From: a virus
Lineage: Duplodnaviria; Heunggongvirae; Uroviricota; Caudoviricetes
Virus record (IMG/VR): IMGVR_UViG_2585427971_000010
Direction: 5' to 3' (one strand)
DNA length: 51,466 bases
The position numbers were made by a program, and so were the translations under genes. Shown here piece after piece: positions 9,362-28,083 of the stretch. The notes beneath the pieces are model-generated. The model did no database searches. It saw nothing but the letters and a program-made list of their open reading frames with translations, and was not told where the DNA came from. Position 1 is the stretch's first letter. Each line of letters opens with the position of its first letter.

Positions 9362-10276
9362 ATGGGACGCACCAAATCACCCGTTAACACTGAACTGAAT
9401 GTTGAGGTTCCGCTGTCAGATAACATCAATGTCAATTTGAACGCTATGACACAGCATCGCATGGAAATTATGCAGCAGTTTGGTGATGGACTGCCTTATG
9501 AACGTGATCGCATTGTTCACGAAGCACGTTTTTATATGGCGCAGAGTGCTGAATCTATGCTGGAAGCGGGTAAGCGGCTGATCATCTTAAAAGAAAATGA
9601 GCCACACGGTGATTTTACAAACATTTTAGAAAATGAACTCGGACTTGCACCACAAGTTGCTCGCCGCATGATGCAAGCCAGTATGAAGTTTTTGGGAGAA
9701 GGTGATGAGCCAACAAAACGCTCAACGTTGAGCGTTTTGGGGAAAGCCAAACTGTACGACCTGATGGTTCTGGATAATGAAGAACTTGATGAATTGGCCG
9801 ACGGCGGCACAGTTGCCGGCCTGACGCTTGACGACGTTGATCGCATGTCAGTACGTGAATTGCGTCAGGCCCTGCGCGAAGCGCGCGAAACCAACGCAGC
9901 ACAACAGCGCGTACTCGCCGACAAAAATGAAAAAATAGATTCACTCTCCACCAGACTGGAGAAGAAATCCCGTATTCAGCCGCCTGAGCCTGATGAGGAG
10001 GTTAAGAAGCTGCGGGCGGAAGTAACAGCATTAGCGGTTGAGGCGGAATCTGCTATCGCCGTCCGACTGTCCAGCGCTTTTGAGACGCTGTGCGCATATT
10101 GTGCTGAAAACATGATTGATACCCCCAGAGACTTCATGGCAGGCCTGGTCTGTCAACTGGAAAGCACAGCGCGTAGCCTGCGCTCCACATTTGACCTGCC
10201 GGACGAGCCAACAGGCAATGCAGCGCCTTCATGGCTGACTGAGCCGACGCCACAGATTAACGGGCTGGAGGCATAA
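9362..10276 (+). CDS. hypothetical protein (Mu-like early region)
   Basis: 304-aa ORF with strong SD (AAGGAG); acidic, coiled-coil-rich. Confidence 0.55.
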   Translation: MGRTKSPVNTELNVEVPLSDNINVNLNAMTQHRMEIMQQFGDGLPYERDRIVHEARFYMAQSAESMLEAGKRLIILKENEPHGDFTNILENELGLAPQVARRMMQASMKFLGEGDEPTKRSTLSVLGKAKLYDLMVLDNEELDELADGGTVAGLTLDDVDRMSVRELRQALREARETNAAQQRVLADKNEKIDSLSTRLEKKSRIQPPEPDEEVKKLRAEVTALAVEAESAIAVRLSSAFETLCAYCAENMIDTPRDFMAGLVCQLESTARSLRSTFDLPDEPTGNAAPSWLTEPTPQINGLEA

Positions 10277-10279
10277 CCA

Positions 10280-12049
10280 ATGAATGCTGCCCTGACTGAA
10301 CGACTGGTTTATGTCGCCCGCGCGGCACGTGACGCGGGGCATGGTAAACGCGGTGCAATATACGACGCTGCCTGTGCTGAACTTGGCATGTCCCGCGCCA
10401 CTCTGCTGCGCAGGCTGAAGGAGGTCTCTGTGACTGATAAACGCAAAAAACGCGCCGATGCCGGGCGCAGCGCCCTGACCCGCGACGAAGCCGCGCTGAT
10501 ATCTGCCACACTGCGTGAGGCCACCCGCAAGAACGGTAAGCGTCTCTATTCCATCGCAGATGCAGTGGAAACCCTGCGGGCTAACGGCTTTATCACCGCA
10601 GGCAGAACAGATGAAACCACCAGTGAGTTTTTCCCGTTGTCTGAAGATGCCATCAGCCGTGCTCTGCGTAACTATGGCCTGCACCCGGAACAACTGGATG
10701 CCCCTGCACCACATACCGAAGTGGCCAGTCTGCATCCCAATCATGTCTGGCAGATTGACGCCTCACTCTGCACGCTTTACTACCTGAGCAATGGACATAA
10801 AGGGCTGCAGGTGATGGACAGCGCGAAGTTCTACAAGAACAAGCCCGCTAACCTTGCCCGTATCGCCAGTGACCGCGTGTGGAGTTACGAGATTACCGAC
10901 CATGCCAGCGGCTGGATTTACGTTGAGTATGTGACGGGCGCGGAATCAGGTGAGAACCTGTGTTCTGTGCTTATCAACGCCATGCAGGAGCGTGGCGGCG
11001 CAGACGTGCTGCACGGCGTGCCGAAAATACTCTATCTCGACCCCGGCTCGGCAAACACCGCGGGTATGACGAAAAACATGTGCCGCTCACTGGGCATCGA
11101 CCTGATAGCGCACAAGCCGCATAACGCCCGCGCCACCGGACAGGTGGAAAAGGCGCGTGACATTATCGAACGCAAGCTGGAGCCGGGTCTGAAGTTCCGG
11201 CCGGTTCACAGTCTGGAAGAACTCAACGCGCTGGCCGCGAAATGGCGCAGCCACTTTAACGCCACGGCTGTTCACAGCCGCCACGGTAAAACCCGCACGG
11301 ATATCTGGCTGAAGATTACTGCTGAGCAGCTGAAAAAAGCGCCTTCCGTTGAGGTATGTCGTGAACTGGCTGTGGCGGCACCAGAACTCCGCAAAGTCAC
11401 GCCAAAACTTCGTGTCTCGTTCCGGGGCACTGAATTTGACGTATCAACGGTACCGGGCGTACTGGTTGGTGAAAAACTGATGATTACCCGTAACCCATGG
11501 CGCAGCGATGTGGCACAGGTGGTTCTGACCGGTGAGGACGGCCACGAGACGTTCTTCCTGGTCGAAGAGGTCAGAAAGAACGAGTTTGGCTTTGCTGAAG
11601 GCGCGGCGGTATTTGGCGAAAGTTACAAAGCCCTGCCGGAAACCCCGGCACAGATGGCGGCAAAAGAAACCGAAGCGCTGGTTACCGGTACAGACAACGC
11701 CGCAGATGCAGCCGCCGCACGCAAGGCGAAGGCGCTGCCGTTCGGCGGGCGGCTTGACCCGTATAAACATATCGACGACACCACACTTCCGGCCTATATG
11801 CCGAAGCGTGGTCAGGCCTCTGACGTACGCGGGCCGCGCACTGAACAACGTCCCATGACTCATGTGGAGGCCGCGAAAGCCCTGCGCGATAAGTTCAGCG
11901 CCGACGGCCTTACCTGGACGCCGGAACATTACCGCCAGTTAACGGCACAGTACCCGGACGGCGTACCGGAAGCCGCACTGGATGAAGTCATGGCCACGCT
12001 GACCACACCGGCCCGCAGCAGTGTTATCAGCATTGTTAACGGCAACTGA
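10280..12049 (+). CDS. DDE transposase (Mu A-like, integrase-core/rve fold)
   Basis: 589 aa; catalytic-core-like segments (HVWQIDASL…, …ITDHASGWIYVEY…, …LYLDPGSANTAG…); followed by AAA+ partner as in MuA/MuB. Confidence 0.8.
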   Translation: MNAALTERLVYVARAARDAGHGKRGAIYDAACAELGMSRATLLRRLKEVSVTDKRKKRADAGRSALTRDEAALISATLREATRKNGKRLYSIADAVETLRANGFITAGRTDETTSEFFPLSEDAISRALRNYGLHPEQLDAPAPHTEVASLHPNHVWQIDASLCTLYYLSNGHKGLQVMDSAKFYKNKPANLARIASDRVWSYEITDHASGWIYVEYVTGAESGENLCSVLINAMQERGGADVLHGVPKILYLDPGSANTAGMTKNMCRSLGIDLIAHKPHNARATGQVEKARDIIERKLEPGLKFRPVHSLEELNALAAKWRSHFNATAVHSRHGKTRTDIWLKITAEQLKKAPSVEVCRELAVAAPELRKVTPKLRVSFRGTEFDVSTVPGVLVGEKLMITRNPWRSDVAQVVLTGEDGHETFFLVEEVRKNEFGFAEGAAVFGESYKALPETPAQMAAKETEALVTGTDNAADAAAARKAKALPFGGRLDPYKHIDDTTLPAYMPKRGQASDVRGPRTEQRPMTHVEAAKALRDKFSADGLTWTPEHYRQLTAQYPDGVPEAALDEVMATLTTPARSSVISIVNGN

Positions 12050-13525: not shown

Positions 13526-14056
13526 ATGGCAAAAAGTACAAAAGGTGCAAAACGTATCAAGGCCGCAGCAGCACTCTGGGTGCCGGGGACACGTGAAGAG
13601 GTCATTGAGGGAATCAGACTACTCGGTGACGCACAACGTGAACTGGTCAGGGCTGAAACAGAAATGAATGACGCCATTGGCGATATCACCGCACGTTATG
13701 CCCCGCTCACCGAGAGCCTGAAAAAACGCATGGCCGAACTGCAGTCCGGTATTCAGACATGGTGTGAGGCACACCGTGATGAACTGACCGGCAACGGGAA
13801 GGTGAAGTTCGCTAACCTCACCACCGGCGAGGTGCAGTGACGAAACCGTCCGCCATCAGTCAGTATCCGTGGGGCGGATAATGTTATTGAATTACTGAGA
13901 CGTCTGGGGCTTGAGCGCTTTATTCGTGTAAAAGAGGAAATAAATAAAGACGCTATCCTGAATGAAAAAGAGGCCGTGAAAAATATTCCCGGTATTTCCA
14001 TTAAAAGCGACATTGAGGATTTTTCAATAATTCCTTTTGAGCAGGATGTGCAGTAA
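13526..14056 (+). pseudogene. gam: Gam-like host-nuclease inhibitor (Mu Gam homologue) interrupted by in-frame TGA at 13838-13840
   Basis: N-terminal 104 aa recalls Mu Gam (MAKSTKGAKRIKAAAALWVPGTREEV…); the same frame continues after the stop (RNRPPSVSIRGADNVIELLRRLGLERFIRVKEEINKDAIL…SIKSDIEDFSIIPFEQ) matching the Gam C-terminus; the stop sits where Mu has Trp. Confidence 0.6.
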
Positions 14057-14348: not shown

Positions 14349-14617
14349 TTACCCCACAGGAAGCACGACAGCGCACCCGAACCCTTGTTGAACACTATGT
14401 CAACGAGTGTGAATGCCGCGACCTCACCGATGTGAAGCACGTCCTGACGGCGCTAATCAGCATGACCGCTCAAGCCATTGTGGCGACCAACGGAAAGGCG
14501 GCTGCCCTGCAGGTACTGGTGAACACACTAACCCACACGGCAGCGCATGAGGTGCCGTACCGGATGGAAACCACTGCAGAAGGCGGCCTGCACATCACCG
14601 TCAGCCGGAAGCACTGA
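14345..14617 (+). CDS. hypothetical protein
   Basis: 90-aa ORF, SD GGGAGG, start overlaps upstream stop. Confidence 0.45.
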   Translation: MITPQEARQRTRTLVEHYVNECECRDLTDVKHVLTALISMTAQAIVATNGKAAALQVLVNTLTHTAAHEVPYRMETTAEGGLHITVSRKH

Positions 14618-14626
14618 GGGCGCGGC

Positions 14627-14923
14627 ATGACACGGAACACCATACTCACCCGCACCGCCCTCTACCGTCTGGCCCTGCAGCGTTTCGGGCCGGACGCACA
14701 GGCCCTGAAACTGACAGAAGAGGCCGCTGAACTGGCGGCCAGTGCTGCCCGCAATCTGAACGGACAGGGCAGCGAAAGCGACCTCGCGGCAGAGCTGGCA
14801 GACGTGGAAATCATGACAGAGCAATTGCGCCTTCAGGGGATGGACCGGCTGATTGACTTCCACAAACAGAAAAAACTGGAACGTCTGGCTGCACGACTGG
14901 GCGTGATTTACACGAACGAGTAA
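14627..14923 (+). CDS. MazG-like nucleotide pyrophosphohydrolase domain protein
   Basis: 98 aa with EExxE and E..D motifs (LTEEAAELAASAAR; ELADVEIM) typical of all-alpha NTP pyrophosphohydrolases. Confidence 0.5.
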   Translation: MTRNTILTRTALYRLALQRFGPDAQALKLTEEAAELAASAARNLNGQGSESDLAAELADVEIMTEQLRLQGMDRLIDFHKQKKLERLAARLGVIYTNE

Positions 14924-14937
14924 CCGGGAGGCATTCA

Positions 14938-15153
14938 ATGGCTGACATACTCAGGGAAATCACCGCATGGATACTGATTCTTACTGGCCTGGCGACATGC
15001 CTCAGTGCGGGGGCAGCCCTGGCTGCCCTGCTGATGCACATAACAACACAGTGGTTATGGGAAAAGCTTAAAGCAGCATACAGCCTGAAAGAGCTGTCCG
15101 ACGCTGTCCGGGCATGGAAACGGCAGAAAAATACAGGAGATACAGAACAATGA
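14938..15153 (+). CDS. small membrane protein
   Basis: 71 aa, hydrophobic helix (ITAWILILTGLATCLSAGAALAALLM). Confidence 0.4.
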   Translation: MADILREITAWILILTGLATCLSAGAALAALLMHITTQWLWEKLKAAYSLKELSDAVRAWKRQKNTGDTEQ

Positions 15154-15833
15154 CAGACCAGAATAAACACATTGAGAAACTGAAAAAGTTGCTGGCGCTG
15201 GCCGCATCCGGCAACCCGCACGAGGCCGCTCTGGCACTGCGCCGAGCCCGTAAACTGATGGATGTTCACGGCATCACACATTCCGACATTGCTATGAGTG
15301 ATATTGATGAAACCATCAGTCACTACTGGCCGACAGGCAGTCTCCGTCCACCGCGCTACATGCTGGGCCTGATGAACATCATCCGCGAGGTATTTGGTGT
15401 TAACTCCATCATTCACCCCGGCACGCATCCGTCTGTGGGGTTCTACGGCAACCGGGAACGTGCGGCACTGGCTGCATACACCTGGGAAGTGCTGGCCCGT
15501 CAGCTGAAAAAGGCGCGTCAGCAGTATATCAGTGCACAGAACAAAAGAATAAAAACCGCCACCCGCACCAGCCGTGGAGACCAGTTTGCCGAAGGCTGGG
15601 TGCTGGCCGTTATCAGTGAAATACAGTCCTTTGCCCTGACCGATGATGAGCGTGAACTGATGCAGCAGTGGCTGGAACATAAATACCCGCAGACGCAAAC
15701 CACCAGGGCGCGTAAACCGGGAAGAAGCCGCAATGGCGACGCCTCGCGCTATGCGGGGTTTCGTGAAGGGCAGAACGTCAGACTGCACCGCCCGGTCAGT
15801 GGGCAGGAACAACAGAAACTGGAGGCCAGATGA
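15150..15833 (+). CDS. hypothetical protein conserved in Mu-like early regions
   Basis: Internal Met with GGAG SD (MTDQNKHIEKLKKLLALAASGNPHEAALALRRARKLM…). Confidence 0.5.
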   Translation: MTDQNKHIEKLKKLLALAASGNPHEAALALRRARKLMDVHGITHSDIAMSDIDETISHYWPTGSLRPPRYMLGLMNIIREVFGVNSIIHPGTHPSVGFYGNRERAALAAYTWEVLARQLKKARQQYISAQNKRIKTATRTSRGDQFAEGWVLAVISEIQSFALTDDERELMQQWLEHKYPQTQTTRARKPGRSRNGDASRYAGFREGQNVRLHRPVSGQEQQKLEAR

Positions 15834-16060
15834 TTACGCTATCAGGTAAAAGCCGGAAATTAAAAGCCTGCCGAATATCTGCCAGATACCTTTTTGCCCG
15901 CGCCTTTTTTAAGAACGTCAGGCCGGGGATCACAATTGGTGTTATTGCCGGACGCGAACAGGTTGAAAAATACATGTCAGGTGCATGGTGGAATAACGAC
16001 CCTGTCATTGCTGCCCGTAATATTCATATCGAATGGGGAGGTATTCAGAATGACTACTGA
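15830..16060 (+). CDS. hypothetical protein
   Basis: 76-aa ORF with GGAGG SD, start overlaps upstream stop. Confidence 0.4.
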   Translation: MITLSGKSRKLKACRISARYLFARAFFKNVRPGITIGVIAGREQVEKYMSGAWWNNDPVIAARNIHIEWGGIQNDY

Positions 16061-16256
16061 AACCATTGTCTGTTTTCTTTTCTGGTATATGTACGCAGGA
16101 TCATGCAGCGCAAGACTTCATCGTTCCCTGGGCTATGGCAGGCACTACGACACCGCGCATTACATCCTGTACATGACCGCCGTCATGTTGTTCTGGCCAG
16201 TCACCCTGCCAGCTGCAACCGACATTGTTGCCGACAGACTGAAAAAAAGGAGATGA
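16050..16256 (+). CDS. small hydrophobic protein
   Basis: 68 aa from internal Met (MTTETIVCFLFWYMY…), SD GGGGAGG. Confidence 0.35.
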   Translation: MTTETIVCFLFWYMYAGSCSARLHRSLGYGRHYDTAHYILYMTAVMLFWPVTLPAATDIVADRLKKRR

Positions 16257-16257
16257 T

Positions 16258-16707
16258 ATGCAGAAAAAACGCCTGATACAGCTTATCCATATTGCCCGTA
16301 ATGAACTGGGTATGGATGAAGACACCTACCGCCAGATGTTACAGGGGCTGACCGGTAAAGCCTCAACCAAAGGAATGGATACCACACAACTAAACTGCGT
16401 GCTGGAATCCATGAAAAAGAAAGGCTTTCGCGTTAAACCAGCCAGAAAAGCCAGCTCCGGTTTACCGCTGGATAACCATCCGCAGTCCAGGAAAATTCGT
16501 GCGCTATGGCTTGAAATGGCTGCTGCCGGCATTGTTCGTGACCGTTCAGAAAATGCATTAGCGAGGTGGATCAAGCGGGAAACGGGCATCAGCGCCCTGC
16601 GCTGGCTCAGTACTGAACAGGCAAGCAGTGTTATTGAGAAACTGAAGAAGTGGCAGCGCAGAGCTGCGGGAGTCAAACATGAGCGACCTGAATCAGTTTC
16701 GAAGTAA
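16258..16707 (+). CDS. gemA: GemA-like regulatory protein (Mu gp16 family)
   Basis: N-terminal LIQLIHIARNELGMDEDTYRQML… pattern typical of GemA; sits immediately upstream of the Mor-family gene. Confidence 0.6.
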   Translation: MQKKRLIQLIHIARNELGMDEDTYRQMLQGLTGKASTKGMDTTQLNCVLESMKKKGFRVKPARKASSGLPLDNHPQSRKIRALWLEMAAAGIVRDRSENALARWIKRETGISALRWLSTEQASSVIEKLKKWQRRAAGVKHERPESVSK

Positions 16708-17068
16708 GGGGCCGGAACTCCTGGTGGAACTGGCACAGCATACCTCTGAGACCGTTCGCGAGATTATTGATATTGAGCCCGAAGTTGCCGACCAGATTGG
16801 TCAGGCCGTCGCGAACCGAATGATGCAGGTCTGGGGCGGGCAAAACGTTTATTTCCCGATGGGCATGGTATGGAAGGTCAGTCAGCGCGACCGGGAAATC
16901 TTCAGGGAGTTTAACGGACGCAACCACCACGAACTGGCCCGCAAATTTGGTGTTTCGCTTCAGTGGGTCTACAGCGTGGTTAAGCGGGTAAGAAAAGAAG
17001 AACTGGATCGGATGCAGGGCAAGCTATTTGCTGATGAACCCGATGCAGATACGGAGAAAAAAGAGTAA
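16679..17068 (+). CDS. mor: Mor/C-family transcriptional activator
   Basis: 129 aa with conserved Mor-family segments (…WGGQNVYFPMG…, …FREFNGRNHHELARKFGVSLQWVYSVVKRVR…). Confidence 0.7.
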   Translation: MSDLNQFRSKGPELLVELAQHTSETVREIIDIEPEVADQIGQAVANRMMQVWGGQNVYFPMGMVWKVSQRDREIFREFNGRNHHELARKFGVSLQWVYSVVKRVRKEELDRMQGKLFADEPDADTEKKE

Positions 17069-17097
17069 TATCTGCAATCAGGCTGGCGCGAGTTCTG

Positions 17098-17154
<57 letters not shown>

Positions 17155-17155
17155 A

Positions 17156-17232
<77 letters not shown>

Positions 17233-20955: not shown

Positions 20956-21227
20956 ATTGACTTAGAAAAAGTCCGGGGCTATAGTTTCCGCGCAGCCGCA
21001 AAATCGGTTGCCGGGATTGGCGTCCCGGATATCTAAGTGACGCATAGCCGCGTTAGCGGTTTTTTTATGTGTTAGGCACGGCCACATTCGCATTATGGTG
21101 GGCTGTGTGGGGGCTTCTGTGGAAGCGCCGGGTTCACTTAGCCGGTTACGCCAACCCTGCACAGCTCACCACCAGATGATTGGCGTCGCTGGTGGTGATG
21201 AAAAAAACACTAAGTGAGGCCACTGCG

Positions 21228-22016
21228 ATGACAGTCCAAATATCTGCGGAATCCCTTTCTCCGCTACATCATAACCAACTTCCCGTCATCACTACTGAAT
21301 TGCTTGCCAGTTTGTATGGCACGGAAGTAAATGGTATCCAGCAAAACTTCAAGCGCAACATCGCCAGATTTGTCGTAGGAAAGCATTTTTTTAAGCTGGA
21401 AGGTAATGAATTACGCGACTTCAAAAACAGACTGACAGATAGTCAGTCAGTTGCTAAACATACCCGATCCCTCATTCTCTGGACAGAACGCGGCGCAGCT
21501 CGCCATGCCAAAATGCTGGAAACAGAACAGGCCTGGGAAGTTTTCGAAAAGCTGGAAGATTGTTATTTTAGCCAGCGTCCAGAGAGGCGGAGTACAACTA
21601 CCGATGACCGTACTCCCTTGCGTGATGCCGTTAATATACTGGTCGGCAAGAAAGGCATGATGTATCCCGATGCCTACACCATGATTCATCAACGCTTCGC
21701 CGTCTCTCACATAGAACAACTGTCACAGACGCAAATGTTAGAGGCGATTGAATACATCCACTGCCTGCTACTCGATGAAAATCACCCAACCATTCCAGAT
21801 TTTTCTTTTATCACCACTATCAAAAATGGAAAAGTGACCGGGATGCGCCATGTTGCCAAAGGCGAACATCTGATGACCTTTGACGCTTTCAAAGAGATCG
21901 CTGAGCGGGCAGGGTATCTGGTGATCCACAGCGACAATCTGCGAAGTATGACACTGGATAAATTGATGGTAATGGGGAAAAAGTCGGCTATATCCGTTGC
22001 TAATTCAGCATTTTGA
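21228..22016 (+). CDS. antirepressor-like protein (ORF6N-type N-terminal domain)
   Basis: N-terminal region ELLASLYGTEVNGIQQNFKRNIARFVVGKHFFKL resembles antirepressor N-domains; start set at Met 17 (GAGG SD); 21180 or 21198 also possible. Confidence 0.5.
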   Translation: MTVQISAESLSPLHHNQLPVITTELLASLYGTEVNGIQQNFKRNIARFVVGKHFFKLEGNELRDFKNRLTDSQSVAKHTRSLILWTERGAARHAKMLETEQAWEVFEKLEDCYFSQRPERRSTTTDDRTPLRDAVNILVGKKGMMYPDAYTMIHQRFAVSHIEQLSQTQMLEAIEYIHCLLLDENHPTIPDFSFITTIKNGKVTGMRHVAKGEHLMTFDAFKEIAERAGYLVIHSDNLRSMTLDKLMVMGKKSAISVANSAF

Positions 22017-22046
22017 CAGGTTGTTTGGGGCGGAAATACTCTATTT

Positions 22047-22112
22047 GCGCTTAAAAAGGTATTTGACCACGACCAGCACGAGACCGAATACCTCTGTCAA
22101 AGTACCGCCCAT
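22047..22112. repeat. 66-bp direct repeat, copy A (orphan copy of the 3' end of gene 25463..26068)
   Basis: About 93% identical to 25468..25533; on the minus strand encodes MGGTLTEVFGLVLVVVKYLF*. Confidence 0.7.
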
Positions 22113-22142
22113 ATAAAACAGTTACATATGCACTTGATGACT

Positions 22143-22176
22143 AAGCTGGCACCAGGTTAACACCTGGCGCCAGCTT
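22143..22176. terminator. strong hairpin (about 15-bp arms, 4-nt loop) between convergent genes; probable terminator
   Basis: AAGCTGGCACCAGGT-TAAC-ACCTGGCGCCAGCTT, just downstream of the lipoprotein gene stop; no clean U-tract. Confidence 0.45.
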
Positions 22177-22190
22177 GAAGGAGACTTCAG

Positions 22191-23114
22191 TTATTGGTTT
22201 CTGAGGAAAGCGATTCTTGAAAGGGTCATTTGCGTCTGGCAGTCGACCATTTTCTTGACTTCAGCATCTGTTCCCTGCATTGAAACTTTACCGCACATAG
22301 CATCCTTAGTTTTGATCCACTGACGCTGAGAAGGCAGCAAATCTTTTTTCTTCGCCGGGGTTAACTTGCTCCAGACGGTACTCAAATCAGAGTCGGCATT
22401 CGCAAATGCCATTCGGGACTGATCAAGGTTGTCAGCTTTTTGCGGCTGAAGTTGTGCCTGTCTCTCTATTTGCTTCTCCGCCTCATACTTAGCCTGTTCT
22501 TGCGCCCTGAGTTGCACCTGTTGTTCCGCTTCAATTTGACTCTGTTGGGCATCCTTAGCCTGCTGGATTTTCTGCTGCTCAACGATCGGGGTGATAATGG
22601 AAAGCGATGTCAGTAAAGCGGCGCCCACTGATATCGGATTATCAGTAGAGGTTTTTACAAAAACGTTTTTCTGATCGTCGGTCGCCTGCACGGTGTAGGT
22701 GATACGTTTTGAAAAGGCGTTTGCGTTGTTCTCCAAAAACAGGCTTTCCATTTGCTTATCGAGATTACGATTAAAATTCTTTCTGTAAGCATCTGAAAGC
22801 TGGACGTACTCGTTCGCAGATAGAGTCATCGTCACGGTCCCTTCACAAGTTTTCATTGTGCTGCCCGTGTCACTTGATGTTGTGGAGATCTCAGAGATGG
22901 CTAGTTTGATCTTGTCCAGTGTGCTTCGTTTGGTCTGATTAGTGACATCAGGGTATTTATCGACCTGTTCAGAGAGTCCTTCATAAGCAGATTTTTTTAA
23001 TAAATCCATGAGAGCTGACTGGGTTATTTCCGAAGAACAACCGATCTCATCTTTTTTGTTATCACAGCCTGTAAGGGCAATGGCGAGTAAGAGTACTGAG
23101 TATTTTAATCTCAT
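22191..23114 (-). CDS. lipoprotein with C-terminal LprI-like (DUF1311-type) domain
   Basis: Signal peptide with lipobox LTGC; Q-rich coiled-coil; C-terminal Cys-containing region (…QRQWIKTKDAMCG…VDCQTQMTLSRIAFL). Confidence 0.6.
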   Translation of the reverse strand: MRLKYSVLLLAIALTGCDNKKDEIGCSSEITQSALMDLLKKSAYEGLSEQVDKYPDVTNQTKRSTLDKIKLAISEISTTSSDTGSTMKTCEGTVTMTLSANEYVQLSDAYRKNFNRNLDKQMESLFLENNANAFSKRITYTVQATDDQKNVFVKTSTDNPISVGAALLTSLSIITPIVEQQKIQQAKDAQQSQIEAEQQVQLRAQEQAKYEAEKQIERQAQLQPQKADNLDQSRMAFANADSDLSTVWSKLTPAKKKDLLPSQRQWIKTKDAMCGKVSMQGTDAEVKKMVDCQTQMTLSRIAFLRNQ

Positions 23115-24301
23115 GAATTCCCTTTAGAGTAAGGATTGGTTTTTAAGACGCGGTCTGTAATCAGTCCCGAGAGCTACAGTAAACAACGCTGAGCACTGAA
23201 CGCATCACAGGTAAGGTAAAAGGTGATATCGGCAAAGGCTGTGAAACCTTTAATTCAACAGATGGGAACGGTATGCGCAGGATCCTGTAACGACGCTCCC
23301 AAAACCGGAAACCTGTAAGGCATGTTTTCGCTGCTGAACTTAATATACGAACCTGCACTATCATGAACATATTTTATATCGTTATACCCCGAGTGATTGT
23401 GCCCGGCAATGGATAGTGTCCTGGAGGAACTATTTCTACTGTAAAAGGTAGATATTTAATTTCAGTTTTGAATTATTCCCTGCTGTTAATAACAATGGCT
23501 GTATATGGCACCGAGTAGGCATTTTTTCGCTTACTGAAGGGCAGCTGTGAGCGAGGAACAGACTTTCCCTACTTCGTTGAGAGTACACCTAGTACAATCA
23601 AGGCTAAATGATAAAAATATACAAAATATCATATTTATGATATATATAATGGCATTAATCTTATTCTTGGATTACGTTGAAAGGGTAATATTATATTTGT
23701 GTAACATAGTTTAGATAACAATGCCGTTATGGGGGGGGAAAGACATTTCAACATATTAGCTTTGTATCTAACGCTCATGTAGATCTCGATTTTGAACTTA
23801 AAGAACAATTATTTTTTAGAGAGCAAGGTATTTTTGGGGAACAAAAACATAAAGTAATGGAGAGAGGAGAATGTATCAAAAAATCATCGATTTAATTTAG
23901 ATTGTCCGTATAGTTGGGGGTAAGTCGAATCGCTGGGCTACATGGAATATTGTGTCAAGTAAAAATATATTTCAATCTTGCAATAACCGATTGTTGAAAA
24001 TAATGTCAAATCTTAATGGTGAATGGGGAGAATATAATAAACATGAGTCGATATTATGCAAATGGATTTAAATATTTTATACCCGAAGACATAGGGTTTC
24101 GAGAGTTCGATGAGACTACTTTGAATGCTTTCGAATTTGCTGGCTAAAACATATAGGTTATATCTTACATCTGTTTGTAATGGAGCGTAGATGCGACAAG
24201 CTACACCATAATAATCATATTATGATATATTGTTAAGTTGTTATGGCATTAAATAAAATTATGTCATTTTGTTAACCAAGCAAGAATCAAAGGACTTTTA
24301 G

Positions 24302-25000
24302 ATGGGTACGGCATTAATTTCAAGCTTTATTAGTGGTGCAATAGCTATAATCTCTATTGCTATATCTACTTATAATCAGAATAGAATAAACAAGCTCAAT
24401 GAATCACTGGATGTAAGGAGAAAACATCAGTACTATATTGAACCGTTAATTCGCTCAGCTTCAGACTTACAAAGCCGTATTTATAATATATTAGAATTGG
24501 GGTTCATTGAAGAGTTTTATCATAATGGGAATAAGCGCCAACAAGATTATGTTATCAACAATACTGTTTTTCTTTTTTCCCAGTTTTTTGCATGGACAGA
24601 AGCTGCCCGCATAGACATTCAATACCTTAGCCTAGAAAAAAATAAAAAAATGAGGGAGTTTATTAGATTACAGAACAATATTAACTCATTAATCCAAACA
24701 GACGTCTTTGGTCAGTATTTTATGTTTTTCATAGGAGAGCAGAGAGCTATTGCAGAAAAGATGCTGATATCAACAGATACTGGATTTGATTGCATAGGTT
24801 ACGGCAGTTTCACAAAGGAAAATTGCTTTATCAATGAGCCATTTTTTTTAGATTTAAACAATGAAGTGATAAATATGACAAGAGATATCGGAATTTATAA
24901 AGAAAGGCTAATCAGAATACAGCACGCGTTAATCGATTTAATTAATTTTCTTGATCCTGGCATGATTCGATTTGACGGAAAAAAATATGGAAAAATATAA
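24302..25000 (+). CDS. low-GC membrane-anchored protein of unknown function (single N-terminal TM helix)
   Basis: 232 aa; N-terminal helix ALISSFISGAIAIISIAISTY; strongly AT-rich codon usage inside an AT-rich island. Confidence 0.55.
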   Translation: MGTALISSFISGAIAIISIAISTYNQNRINKLNESLDVRRKHQYYIEPLIRSASDLQSRIYNILELGFIEEFYHNGNKRQQDYVINNTVFLFSQFFAWTEAARIDIQYLSLEKNKKMREFIRLQNNINSLIQTDVFGQYFMFFIGEQRAIAEKMLISTDTGFDCIGYGSFTKENCFINEPFFLDLNNEVINMTRDIGIYKERLIRIQHALIDLINFLDPGMIRFDGKKYGKI

Positions 25001-25184
25001 CCCAGATGATTCGTATCAAGGTAAGTTGCTATATGTATCAATTTAATTATGGTTGGGTGAAATTTATGTTAATAGTAGCGGAGGGTTAGTTAAAATATGC
25101 TCTCAGTGATTTTTGGATAGTTCTTTTATTTATCATTGAAAGTAAATATGTATAGCTTCAAGATTTACAAGTGAATCTGTTTAT

Positions 25185-25218
25185 TGACAGTCCGCTTATG
25201 GCACAGAGCGGACTGTCA
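25185..25218. other. perfect 12-bp inverted repeat hairpin
   Basis: TGACAGTCCGCT-(10 nt)-AGCGGACTGTCA, followed by T-rich sequence; downstream of gene 24302..25000. Confidence 0.4.
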
Positions 25219-25462
25219 TATTAAATTTGGCTCCACGCCATAGATGTGTCAGCTCATATCTTATCTAATACACACAATAACTTTCTCATTCTTGGAGAAT
25301 TATTTTTTTAAGGGTAGGTGTTGACGTTAGAGCAAAAGAATGGTGATTTTTTTGATGTGTATTACGTTGGAACTGATGGGAATAACTATCTGTTTTCAAC
25401 GCACTGCTAATTTATCAAGGCCCTTTGATCAGGGCCTTCGAAAGACTGTTGGACCGAGAGAG

Positions 25463-26068
25463 TTACTTGCGTTTAAAAAGGTATTTTGTCACGACCAGCA
25501 CGAGGCCGAATACCTCTGTCAAAGTACCGCCCATGTACAACTGTAGTGTTAAATCCTCAAATTCCAGCTTACCTGCGCCGTCGGCAATAAATACACCATT
25601 CATTATCAGAAGTTGGAAAGCAAGGATAATCAGGAACCATTTCCCGTATCGTTTTTTTAGAGCGATTTCTGCTTCAAAATCTTTGTTGTTGAGTTGTTTG
25701 CGCTCATGCTCGGTATCAAGTGAATTCACCTGTTTCACAGATGTGAACTCGGTCAAGATTTTACTCTCAGTACGGGTGACTTGTTGAGAGGGTGTAGCAG
25801 TTGGAATTCTTTTGCTAGACGCAGCTACAGCCATTTTGCGAGCTTCGGCAGCTCTTTTTCTGGCTATTCCGCGAATACGGACAGCCGTTTTTTTGGGGGC
25901 GTGCGAAACCTTTGGCTGAGGTGAAGCTTCGTCAGGAGACTGAACCGGAGTTTCATCGTCCTCCGGCTCAACCTCTTCTGCTAACTGACGGTGTAGGTTG
26001 AGGGAATCCTTCAGTCTGCGTGCTACTTCCTGTTTGAAACGGCTGTTAAAATCGTCATCCGATGGCAT
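25463..26068 (-). CDS. membrane-anchored protein: charged disordered N-terminal region plus two C-terminal TM helices
   Basis: 201 aa; K/R/E/P-rich N-terminal two-thirds; C-terminal WFLIILAFQLLIMNGVFIA and LTEVFGLVLVVTKYLF; 9-nt gap after the peptidase gene. Confidence 0.55.
   Translation of the reverse strand: MPSDDDFNSRFKQEVARRLKDSLNLHRQLAEEVEPEDDETPVQSPDEASPQPKVSHAPKKTAVRIRGIARKRAAEARKMAVAASSKRIPTATPSQQVTRTESKILTEFTSVKQVNSLDTEHERKQLNNKDFEAEIALKKRYGKWFLIILAFQLLIMNGVFIADGAGKLEFEDLTLQLYMGGTLTEVFGLVLVVTKYLFKRK
25468..25533. repeat. 66-bp direct repeat, copy B (encodes C-terminal TM helix of gene 25463..26068)
   Basis: Matches 22047..22112 with 4-5 mismatches. Confidence 0.7.
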
Positions 26069-26077
26069 TTTAAAGCG

Positions 26078-26566
26078 TTACCCCAACCTCAAGTTCTTTA
26101 AACGATAAGTCATCGCATCGTCAGATACGCCAAAATAATGCGCCATTATATAACTTGGTTGACCGTCAGCGTGCAGTTTTCTGACCTCATCTACCGGCAT
26201 CAGAAGTTCTGCTGCGAACTTGTTTGCAAAAATTTCATCAGGATGCGTTCCGGCGCTTGCGGTTTCGCCACGTAAATCAACGTACTCATATTCATCGCTA
26301 TGCGATGCTTGCCGGGCGATGTAATGCCCCAACTCATGCCCACATGAAAAACGTTGACGAACTTTGTTGTCATCACTGTTTAGAAAGATCGCTGGATCTT
26401 GATCTTTTTGTTTAATCAGTGCGCCAGAAACTTTCCCAGGAAGATCGGTAATAAAAACATCTAATCCCATGTCGTGAGCAATTTTCGCTGGATCAACAGG
26501 GAAACCACGCCCGCACCAGAACGTGTCCAGCACTCGCCGGGCGTGCTCTCTTGGGTTGGTAGCCAT
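26078..26566 (-). CDS. ImmA/IrrE-family zinc metallopeptidase
   Basis: HEXXH motif (HELGHY) in an ImmA/IrrE-like context; 162 aa, no HTH domain of its own. Confidence 0.7.
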   Translation of the reverse strand: MATNPREHARRVLDTFWCGRGFPVDPAKIAHDMGLDVFITDLPGKVSGALIKQKDQDPAIFLNSDDNKVRQRFSCGHELGHYIARQASHSDEYEYVDLRGETASAGTHPDEIFANKFAAELLMPVDEVRKLHADGQPSYIMAHYFGVSDDAMTYRLKNLRLG

Positions 26567-26621
26567 AGCTCCTCCAGTTACTGCATTACGATTATTGGTT
26601 GAAATATAGACAGCATGTTCC

Positions 26622-26664
26622 GTACCACATTCCTGTAAAAGTGCAAATTCTGCACTTCTGGTAC
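26622..26664. promoter_or_regulatory. nested palindrome upstream of the peptidase operon; candidate operator
   Basis: GTACCA…AGTGCA-aattc-TGCACT…TGGTAC about 60-100 nt upstream of the peptidase start. Confidence 0.35.
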
Positions 26665-26964
26665 GATATTAACTGTTAGTAGTAAAGTCTTCCAGATAAA
26701 TCACTTTAAAATCTTGTGAATTGCTTGCTTTTTACGCTGTATTGTGGATGGTTCAATGTTTCCAGTAAAAACATACATGATAATCATGAGTTTAGTGTTT
26801 TTTTAGGCGTCTATATGTTTCTGGAAAATACAGGTCTAACCTGATCTTATCGTTGAGATTTTTTGTACTCAGTATGCGTGAACGATTCGACCAGGTGACT
26901 GTGTACGTGAAGAAGACCGCCCTTAATATTTTAAATGTGCAACCCCTCAGAAGAGGGGCTACTC

Positions 26965-27198
26965 TCACTTCTGCAGTATCTCGCCAATACCTGCCAGATT
27001 CTCGTCCATCTTGTCACCGTTTTCGATAAGGATGGAGTTGAGCCGATTCAGTTGCATAGCAATTTCAAGTTTGATTAAGGTATCCACCGATACACCAGTT
27101 TCTTTTGCTAACTTAGTAAGAGCCGCAGCTCGATTGGCTAAATTAAAATCATCGAACTCATAACGACTTCTGCACGGCTGGTTGCCTAACGTACCCAT
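26965..27198 (-). CDS. small protein, possible DNA-binding regulator
   Basis: 77 aa; helix-turn-helix-like segment (AALTKLAKETGVSVDTLIKLEI); about 400 nt upstream of the peptidase gene on the same strand; hairpin CCCCTC-agaa-GAGGGG after its stop. Confidence 0.4.
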   Translation of the reverse strand: MGTLGNQPCRSRYEFDDFNLANRAAALTKLAKETGVSVDTLIKLEIAMQLNRLNSILIENGDKMDENLAGIGEILQK

Positions 27199-27441
27199 AG
27201 TGATTCCTCATGATATAAAGACCCAACAATATAAATTACCAGGCACATCATAAGATAGGGTTCCAGCCCATATTTTCAAATATTTGCAAGTATCACCGTT
27301 CAGTCTAAAAAGTTGGATGATGATTTAACGAGCCATAACAAAACCCTGCCTCGGAGGTTTTTTCTTTTTTATAGAACTCAGCGGCGTGAAAACGAATAAT
27401 AAATTGTGCAAATAGTGCAGTTTTTATTATTCGAGGTAATT

Positions 27442-28083
27442 ATGAAAACCTTCTATGAGGACTGGCCTGAAACTTTCGTTAGCCGGTTAGATATGTTACG
27501 GGCGTTGGATGATCGCGGTTCGACCCGGAGGCTCTATCTTGAACGGACCGGGGCAATATTTGACGCTCTGGCAGAAGAGATACGTACAGTCGTTGCCGGG
27601 CATCCTGAAATCGACGTGAGTGAACTTGATATCGGGCCGCTGTATCGCTATTACAAACGTGGAGAAAAGGGGAATCCGCTGGCTGACTTACTTATTGAGT
27701 TGGCTCCACCAACTTGTGAACGGGTTCGTATATCTCCTGAAGTGTACATAATCCCGTATCTGTTTTTTGCACTGTTGATAGCGCAAGGCGCTGACAACGA
27801 TGCCCGCGATTTTTTCAATATGATGATGCGACCGTTAATCATCGCCTACCGTTTCAAACAACTGGCGCGATACCTGGGAACAAAGGGCGGAGGACGACCA
27901 CAGCACAGATTAAAAAGCGAAGCCATTGAACTGGCTGATCGTTTTTTTACTGAAAACCCGACAGCGCCATTATCGCGTGGCGTGCAATACATATCCGGTA
28001 TTTTTGTGGCGAAATACTCTGACCCACCTGCAGCGTCGACGATTAGAAAATGGTTAATTCCAATTTACAGGAGTGATAAATAA
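27442..28083 (+). CDS. hypothetical protein
   Basis: 213 aa from internal Met (MKTFYEDWPETF…); central hydrophobic stretch (IIPYLFFALLIAQG). Confidence 0.5.
   Translation: MKTFYEDWPETFVSRLDMLRALDDRGSTRRLYLERTGAIFDALAEEIRTVVAGHPEIDVSELDIGPLYRYYKRGEKGNPLADLLIELAPPTCERVRISPEVYIIPYLFFALLIAQGADNDARDFFNMMMRPLIIAYRFKQLARYLGTKGGGRPQHRLKSEAIELADRFFTENPTAPLSRGVQYISGIFVAKYSDPPAASTIRKWLIPIYRSDK

Follow-up and report, generated by a model that had tools for sequence, protein, structure and literature searches.

A gene-end relic at the border of a variable gene slot in a lambdoid prophage of Escherichia coli ST131

The stretch of DNA analysed here, hereafter the window, is a viral record of 51,466 nucleotides (nt) from IMG/VR (IMGVR_UViG_2585427971_000010). 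Between an anti-repressor-like gene (ant) and a two-gene module, composed of an ImmA/IrrE metallopeptidase gene (ImmA) and a gene for a membrane protein that we call X, it holds an interval bordered by two direct repeats, copy A next to ant and copy B at the 3' end of X. The DNA from ant to the ImmA-X pair, and on to a gene for a protein of 77 amino acids (aa) beyond it, is probably a recombination-driven slot for accessory and defence genes, in which copy B is the working end of X and copy A a relic. Copy A is what is left of a gene end; the content of the slot varies from one prophage to another, and its cargo is modular; and recombination between the two copies has removed the cargo in at least one lineage. 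The case is one of clear but ordinary phage mosaic evolution and not of a new kind of mobile cassette.

The repeat pair and its single-copy state

A repeat search of the window returned an ungapped direct repeat of 81 nt (22042-22122 against 25464-25544), in which 72 of the 81 positions are identical (89%) at a spacing of 3422 nt. The pair gives a blastn E value of about 1e-23, and 72 identities in the best 81-nt segment compare with 42-43 in five shuffled versions of the 8 kb, confirming that the repeat is real and far above chance. A preliminary description of this DNA, which had placed direct repeats at the borders of the interval, was thus right about their existence, but the register given there needs correction: 22047-22112 pairs with 25469-25534 (61/66 identical, 92%), whereas the partner named, 25468-25533, is one base out of register (18/66). 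The longest identical run in the repeat is 29 nt long and lies at 22084-22112, with its partner at 25506-25534.

Copy B (25463-25550, minus strand) is the functional tail of X and encodes LTLQLYMGGTLTEVFGLVLVVTKYLFKRK followed by the stop codon; the list of open reading frames (ORFs) bears out its description as the 3' end of the gene at 25463-26068 on the minus strand. Copy A (22041-22128, minus strand; also called stub A) is an orphan, as described, and comprises about the last 28 codons and the stop codon of an X allele. The ungapped repeat covers 22042-22122, and comparison with an L26-type copy extends the relic to about 22128 (ECO21 and the designations in L stand for loci of the comparison set, which was made up of related prophages from complete genomes and of IMG/VR contigs). 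Copy A had been thought to end in KYLF and a stop, which does not hold: in the frame aligned to copy B it reads a stop, LFYMGGTLTEVFGLVLVVVKYLFKRK and then TAG, opposite the TAA of X, and the whole C-terminus is kept. That the repeats are homologous copies of a gene end, one of them orphaned, is supported.

The two copies differ at 9 of the 81 positions. In the aligned codons five of the differences are silent, including the one that exchanges stop for stop, and four are non-silent. One change in copy A, T194V, hits a residue that is conserved in at least 90% of the X family, and another creates the in-frame stop (TAA) just upstream. The L26-type stub has retained T194 and carries a 1-nt deletion that shifts the frame, the second stub of L037 contains an internal stop, and in ECO21-, L033- and L020-type loci the stub is shortened to 13 nt, in which A-specific bases are present. 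In view of the in-frame stops, the 1-nt deletion and the shortening to 13 nt, we take the stubs to be decaying relics and not functional mini-genes.

Stub A is always located between ant and the terminator of the LprI-family gene described below, and ant sits 25-29 nt upstream of the stub in all loci with a copy A. Orphan tails of X are also present in L037, at 10866-10952 and 14592-14676 and with no intact X, and in L005 at 13913-13942; a degenerate-pattern search of IMG/VR for further tail copies yielded one additional contig only, of the L037 type. A promoter-like site (TTGACA, 16 nt, AATACT; 10/12) is found at 22013-22040 on the plus strand, where it overlaps the stop codon of ant and points into stub A. 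It is a consensus match only, and would be antisense to the 3' end of X if ant and X were adjacent, as in strain GPEC172.

The part of the window from position 17231 onwards shows 99.99% identity to a lambdoid prophage in strain EC958 of E. coli sequence type 131 (ST131), where the prophage has integrated at the leuZ-cysT-glyW tRNA cluster. Of 5426 complete E. coli genomes, 403 carry 80% or more of the 7-kb region surrounding the repeats. We searched the complete genomes with an artificial junction, in which the 3' end of ant and the spacer that follows were fused to copy B and the rest of X. GPEC172 alone (1/5426) carries this junction as one contiguous piece, and ant, X and ImmA are adjacent in its annotation. 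An empty site, with ant directly before X-ImmA and a single copy of the repeat, had been predicted and is present in this genome; the filled state is seen in 403 of the 5426 genomes, the empty state in 1.

The single copy of GPEC172 is of the A type at all diagnostic bases up to 22083 and of the B type from 22113 on, which places the exchange inside the 29-nt identical block. Because the copy is a chimera of A on the left and B on the right, the X protein of GPEC172 carries T194V; this exact protein is found on 23 contigs in public data, as against at least 1000 for the X protein of the window. Isolates with the T194V chimera are represented by EGP4256834.1, EJI3926315.1, EKS0997387.1 and ELC1531852.1. 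GPEC172 and EC958 show 2 mismatches in 22,090 nt of chromosomal flank and prophage arm, and FliC and the neighbouring proteins are identical. The junction of copy A with LprI occurs in prophages that are 1-15% diverged in ant, some of which are without X (L26, L039 and L045), so that the filled arrangement with both copies predates the ST131 clone. As GPEC172 is clonal with filled genomes and has a chimeric copy, its empty site is best read as a deletion and not as an unoccupied target. Most likely, it arose secondarily, by homologous recombination between the two copies, with 22084-22112 as the crossover interval.

Contents and breakpoints of the slot

At least seven architectures, with near-identical flanks, were found between ant and X-ImmA or the 77-aa gene. 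The ST131 type, which is that of the window, has stub A, LprI and an ORF shared with the Z region of phage P2. In L011 and L036, stub A and the last 184 nt of the LprI module are followed by a 4-kb cargo that codes for PD-T4-3, a DUF6650 protein and transmembrane (TM) proteins, and similarity to the window resumes at 25190; PD-T4-3 is a validated defence gene, detected in L011 by PADLOC with E=1.7e-137. A 13-nt A-type stub precedes the cargo of L020, L033, L042 and ECO21, which consists of genes for a TM protein, an S-adenosylmethionine methyltransferase, a SMEK-domain protein (SMEK_N, with a PADLOC match to Aga) and a 450-aa protein, and similarity again resumes at 25190. The stub and LprI are followed in L019 and L043 by a 2.1-kb cargo with a T5orf172/MUG113 protein and then by X from 25441. 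L037, L065 and four complete genomes have the stub, LprI, other cargo, a second orphan stub and a 182-aa gene module, with no X or ImmA. In L26, L039 and L045, the stub and LprI precede about 7 kb that include HNH and GIY-YIG genes, and X, ImmA and the 77-aa gene are all missing. In the seventh architecture, that of GPEC172, the slot is empty between ant and X. The alleles of the slot thus include several anti-phage or related genes: PD-T4-3, SMEK_N, T5orf172/MUG113, and the HNH and GIY-YIG genes of L26.

The flanks of L036 are 98-100% identical to those of the window, yet enclose the PD-T4-3 cargo. The ant gene of L033 (IMG/VR; 10001-11100 against window 21180-22060) is 100% identical to that of the window and is followed by the methyltransferase/SMEK cargo instead, a complete replacement of the cargo on an identical backbone. 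The testable defining features of a defence hotspot are therefore all present at this locus, namely variable content, near-identical backbones with different cargo, and known anti-phage alleles. Breakpoints recur at about 22053, 22122-22128, 22312, 23515-23544, 25190 and 25441. Similarity to L011, L015/L020 and ECO21 begins at 25190, the site of a terminator-like hairpin (25185-25218, plus strand; 13-bp stem and T-rich tail) that closes the AT-rich ORF and is the strongest in the region. The intergenic segment from 25190 to 25462, the right arm, travels with X and is common to loci with other cargos, at an identity of 97-100% in L036, L042 and L044 and of 78-88% in L037, L039 and L045.

The cargo of the ST131 allele consists of two independent morons, an LprI and an AT-rich segment, each of which occurs without the other in relatives. 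The LprI module spans 22129 to about 23523 and holds, on the minus strand at 22191-23114, a gene for a 307-aa lipoprotein of the LprI family (lipobox LTGC, N-terminus MRLKYSVLLLAIALTGC; Pfam LprI, E=4.1e-7; phrog_5094). Similarity to L26, L006 and L019 covers ant, copy A and LprI and stops at 23515-23523; the end of the module precedes the P2-like segment by about 20-30 nt. That segment, the AT-rich moron (23544-25189, plus strand), is common to the Z-region hotspot of phage P2-EC58: over about 1.7 kb (23544-25272) the window is 86-87% identical to the 'Z-region, ORF1' fragment of that phage (AJ512683), which is a moron from one of the two variable hotspots of P2. The interval had been described as AT-rich, and is so at 23400-25400 (30-35% GC), but not in the LprI part (22200-23400), where a GC content of 43-48% resembles that of the flanks and backbone (45-52%). 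Hence a composition distinct from that of the backbone, one of the criteria for a moron, fits the AT-rich module and not the LprI module.

The 'left inverted repeat' of the P2-EC58 annotation starts at the hairpin at 25185-25218; this is the only arm in the window, and no pair of such inverted repeats was found there. The P2-EC58 record also annotates -35 and -10 elements. Its -10, TAGAAT, aligns to TAGGGT at ~24085-24095 in the window, so that the promoter of the AT-rich gene may not be conserved, and a promoter scan of the region did not exceed shuffle expectation. No RNA family was found in 21500-27500, where a search gave two chance-level matches only (E=0.39-0.87). No integrase, transposase or resolvase was detected in 22041-25550 or in the adjacent genes (ORF list, Pfam, PHROGs and NCBIfam), in agreement with the earlier remark that the interval contains neither an integrase nor a transposase. 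There is no insertion sequence (IS) in the interval, and a transposon or IS fails as an explanation, with no transposase, no terminal inverted repeats in 23400-25470, and a repeat that is 81 nt long at only 89% identity.

The ORF in the AT-rich moron (24302-25000) codes for an all-helical protein of 232 aa with an N-terminal TM segment (phrog_5606), for which there are 290 homologs; the label 'lysogenic protein' in the homolog family derives from the P2-EC58 record. An AlphaFold2 model of the protein (predicted local distance difference test score 86.9) has an N-terminal TM helix followed by a helical bundle. No match was found in Pfam or NCBIfam, a profile search of the PDB gave a best E value of 0.71, and a Foldseek comparison of the model with the PDB gave nothing better than E=0.13. 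Residues 71-204 weakly match the PADLOC model RTasTM (E=1.8e-5), which represents the TM partner of a defence reverse transcriptase. No reverse transcriptase gene was found near 24302-25000; RTasTM-type systems also occur in P2 hotspots.

The order of genes in the prophage is replication genes, ant, copy A, the LprI-family gene, the AT-rich region with the 232-aa ORF, X, the ImmA/IrrE peptidase gene, the 77-aa gene (26965-27198), and then a NinB-like (DUF1367) gene, the gene for the Q antiterminator and the lysis genes. The ant-like gene (21180-22016, plus strand; Pfam ORF6N, E=1e-21; phrog_4792 anti-repressor, E=1.5e-165) forms the conserved left flank of the slot. On the right, X (25463-26068, minus strand; phrog_5346) codes for a 201-aa protein without a match in Pfam or NCBIfam, in which a 19-residue hydropathy scan found residues 144-162 to be the only clear TM segment. 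The N-terminal half is hypervariable in length and sequence. The last 29 residues (173-201, LTLQLYMGGTLTEVFGLVLVVTKYLFKRK), which make up the hydrophobic tail, are nearly invariant in 18 homologs of several genera, and the family extends across the Enterobacterales (Klebsiella, Enterobacter, Salmonella, Cronobacter, Serratia and Plesiomonas). In distant homologs, from Klebsiella, Salmonella and a second E. coli lineage, the peptide tail is kept and most synonymous positions differ, which argues that the tail is conserved by selection on the peptide and is not a shared DNA site. A universal att-like DNA site in the tail of X was rejected for this reason. Within the E. coli lambdoid group, the DNA of the tail is 85-100% identical and is therefore available as a homology patch.

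The ImmA/IrrE (Peptidase_M78) gene (26078-26566, minus strand; Pfam E=7.7e-18; PADLOC capP, E=2.4e-25) is the operon partner upstream of X, and in distant loci ImmA is always paired with X. At three such loci (L024 6153-8661, L027 6195-8513 and L031 5954-8035), from Klebsiella oxytoca, another E. coli lineage and Salmonella pathogenicity island 5 (beside pipA/pipB/sopB), the pair is flanked by a tRNA-Ser gene on one side and a convergent tyrosine integrase gene on the other. The stop codon of X is about 24-40 nt from that of the integrase gene there, and the pair has no helix-turn-helix partner gene. The tRNA-Ser gene is just outside the pair in all three loci, so that ImmA-X is cargo between att and int in these genera, and no second copy of the tail was found near X; the tail as a target of the adjacent integrases was rejected on both grounds. 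Since the pair occupies the att-int slot of integrated elements elsewhere, we regard ImmA-X as a portable accessory two-gene module. It fills the right part of the hotspot in the phage family of the window and is missing from the L037/L065- and L26/L039/L045-type architectures.

Spacers of 33 nt, annotated in clustered regularly interspaced short palindromic repeat (CRISPR) arrays of other E. coli strains, match the window at 100%. Their targets are in ant (~21353-21385), in the repeat at the tail of copy B (~25480-25512) and in the X/ImmA boundary region (~26122-26154), and the phage family is therefore recorded in the CRISPR memory of E. coli. Further to the left, 14500-17231 is the end of a Mu-like transposable prophage (Mor, gp16, DUF2786), which in other genomes is found at differing chromosomal sites. 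It was joined to the lambdoid prophage in no complete genome, and its insertion in the source strain appears to have hit the replication gene of the lambdoid prophage that lies upstream of the gene for the DnaB-like helicase.

Origin of the relic and of the present arrangement

We propose that copy A formed the 3' end of an X allele, older and somewhat diverged, which would once have lain directly beside ant. An illegitimate (non-homologous) joint may have placed the LprI module 87 nt inside this allele, leaving the relic. The breakpoints suggest that piecemeal exchange between co-resident or co-infecting phages followed, presumably by way of homology in the arms, which comprise ant and the stub on the left side and, on the right, the segment 25190-25462 together with X, ImmA and the 77-aa gene. 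Illegitimate joints would also have contributed from time to time, in many cases at terminator hairpins. The cargo would be retained for its benefit to the lysogen, and no dedicated recombinase would be involved. As the tails still share 81 nt, including the 29-nt identical block, homologous recombination by the host or the phage can delete the cargo.

Several points weigh against this proposal. The single illegitimate joint that would have given rise to stub A is a reconstruction and not an observed event. Moreover, stub A joins the LprI terminator and another stub, stub C, joins the 182-aa gene module (in L037, L065 and partly in ECO21), yet their truncation points agree to within 1 nt, at a distance of 87-88 nt from the stop codon and at the start of the invariant tail, a coincidence not expected if illegitimate joining were random. 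Weak similarity is seen in the first 10 nt beyond the two joints. The shared cut may reflect a common origin, a preferred point of breakage or recombination, or the re-insertion of excised circles of cargo plus tail. The polarity assigned to GPEC172 is drawn from clonal near-identity and from the distribution in relatives rather than from a rooted phylogeny, and should be read with this in mind. As to the cargo, no validated defence homolog was found for LprI or for the 232-aa protein, and the latter gave nothing against the PADLOC PD/Rst models beyond the weak RTasTM match. The neighbouring alleles in the slot make it likely that the cargo genes of ST131 benefit the lysogen or act against phages, but this role is putative.

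The preliminary description had favoured a single cassette, inserted into the 3' end of a resident gene. In this vein, a discrete circular cassette with one copy of the X tail could have gone into the 3' end of a resident X through one crossover, which may have been site-specific or homologous of the Campbell type, with the 29-nt block as the core; the end of the gene would have been restored and the old end displaced to ant, and GPEC172 would represent an unoccupied or precisely excised site. We consider this unlikely. It agrees with the existence of an empty-site genome and with the switch from A to B exactly in the 29-nt block, as in an att core, and also with the bracketing of a different cargo by the same two tails in L011/L036. 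The inner boundary that two stubs share within 1 nt is likewise what repeated re-insertion of cargo-plus-tail circles would propagate. However, there is no integrase or recombinase in or beside the interval, and the interval is not a single cassette: its cargo comprises at least two independent modules with independent distributions, other cargos occupy the same bracket, and there are internal breakpoints at 22312, 23520, 25190 and 25441. Stub A is found only beside ant and never at another X tail, the integrase-adjacent X genes of other genera have no second copy nearby, and the DNA of the tail is not conserved across genera. The junction of the stub with LprI occurs in relatives without X (L26, L039 and L045) and so predates the present arrangement, and the 'resident' gene is itself part of a portable accessory module, ImmA-X, which in other genera fills a slot between tRNA-Ser and integrase genes. 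Of the 81 positions, 9 differ between the copies, on both sides of the block, and the stubs bear inactivating mutations. Finally, the genome with the empty site belongs to the same clone as the filled genomes and has a chimeric copy, which fits a deletion and not an ancestral unoccupied target. An att-flanked integrative element in the strict sense fails in that there is no recombinase, that the parts occur separately and that they are never found at other copies of X; a 29-nt identical core and a one-copy genome were seen, but as this genome is clonal with filled ones it could equally be the product of homologous deletion.

Alternatively, two full X-ImmA modules may once have stood in tandem around the cargo, for example through unequal recombination of two phages, and the left one may have eroded to a relic of 81-88 nt, which would then reflect decay by deletion and not the joint that introduced the cargo. 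Within the aligned codons, 5 of 10 nucleotide differences between copies A and B, about half, are silent, suggesting that they diverged while both were functional alleles; deletions do nibble at the stub, as its reduction to 13 nt in ECO21, L033 and L020 indicates; and ImmA-X is portable and occurs in other slots. Nevertheless, no relative was found with a longer left copy or with a remnant of ImmA between ant and LprI, and all A-type copies end at the same point, for which one joint is a simpler explanation than convergent erosion, making this course of events quite unlikely. The least probable in our judgement, and very doubtful, is that the 87-88-nt tail of X serves as a portable recombination anchor, the slot being an array of units that start with a tail, are excised as circles and are re-captured at other tails. 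The units, an assignment just as doubtful, would be tail A-LprI-ORF1-arm and tail B-X body-ImmA in ST131, and tail A'-LprI-cargo-arm and tail C-182-aa module in L037. If true, this would amount to a cassette system for defence genes in lambdoid phages that is either recombinase-free or dependent on a recombinase not yet recognised, and its signature would be the inner boundary that stubs A and C have nearly in common. We give the re-insertion of circles a low probability because the stubs decay, stub A is never found away from ant, many of the breakpoints are unrelated to the tail, and there is no recombinase.

Comparison with known systems

The borders and breakpoints given here define a previously unannotated variable slot in the prophage of about 400 complete genomes of ST131, a pandemic clone. 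The slot exchanges genes with the Z hotspot of P2, and validated defence genes can be part of its content. Candidates for a function in lysogen benefit or against phages are the LprI lipoprotein, the 232-aa protein labelled 'lysogenic protein', and ImmA-X, the pair with the invariant tail. The relic of the gene end is a natural example of how a past mosaic joint is recorded and later drives the loss of cargo; no new mechanism of mobility is revealed.

The hotspots of P2-like phages and P4 satellites hold antiviral genes that are swapped rapidly, with identical core genes accompanied by differing defences (PMC9122126; Moura de Sousa et al. 2026, PMC13586616). The slot resembles them in its fixed place between conserved phage genes and in the swapping of unrelated, often AT-rich cargos on near-identical backbones; in addition, one of its alleles is PD-T4-3, and the AT-rich gene of the ST131 allele also occurs in the P2 Z hotspot itself. 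It differs in that the host is a lambdoid prophage, in which the slot lies between ant and the ImmA-X/nin-like region and not next to cos. Unlike the P2 and P4 hotspots, it is split into at least two sub-slots, and one of its borders is a pseudogene relic that makes up, together with the other border, a direct repeat; the anti-phage activity of the ST131 cargo is only putative.

Integrative elements that target the 3' ends of genes, with att sites in tRNA, tmRNA or protein-coding genes, likewise have a direct repeat, with a copy that completes the gene and an orphan copy, and share with the slot an identical core and a single-copy state. In contrast to these elements, the slot has no integrase and no coherent insert; its orphan occurs at one fixed position, its repeat has diverged and is decaying, and a deletion is the best reading of its single-copy state. 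A further parallel is the loss of DNA through homologous recombination between direct repeats that are short and diverged: the copy in GPEC172 is a clean chimera that switches type within the longest identical run (29 nt), although dependence on RecA or on a phage Red-like recombinase is only presumed in the present case.

In the Hendrix/Juhala model of lambdoid morons and mosaic junctions, morons are autonomous gene units with a composition unlike that of the backbone and with a terminator hairpin, and mosaic boundaries are sharp. The cargo of the slot resembles such units, with sharp boundaries between otherwise near-identical genomes. What distinguishes the slot from other lambdoid morons is that the junction is marked by a relic of the end of the neighbouring gene, long enough to drive a secondary deletion.

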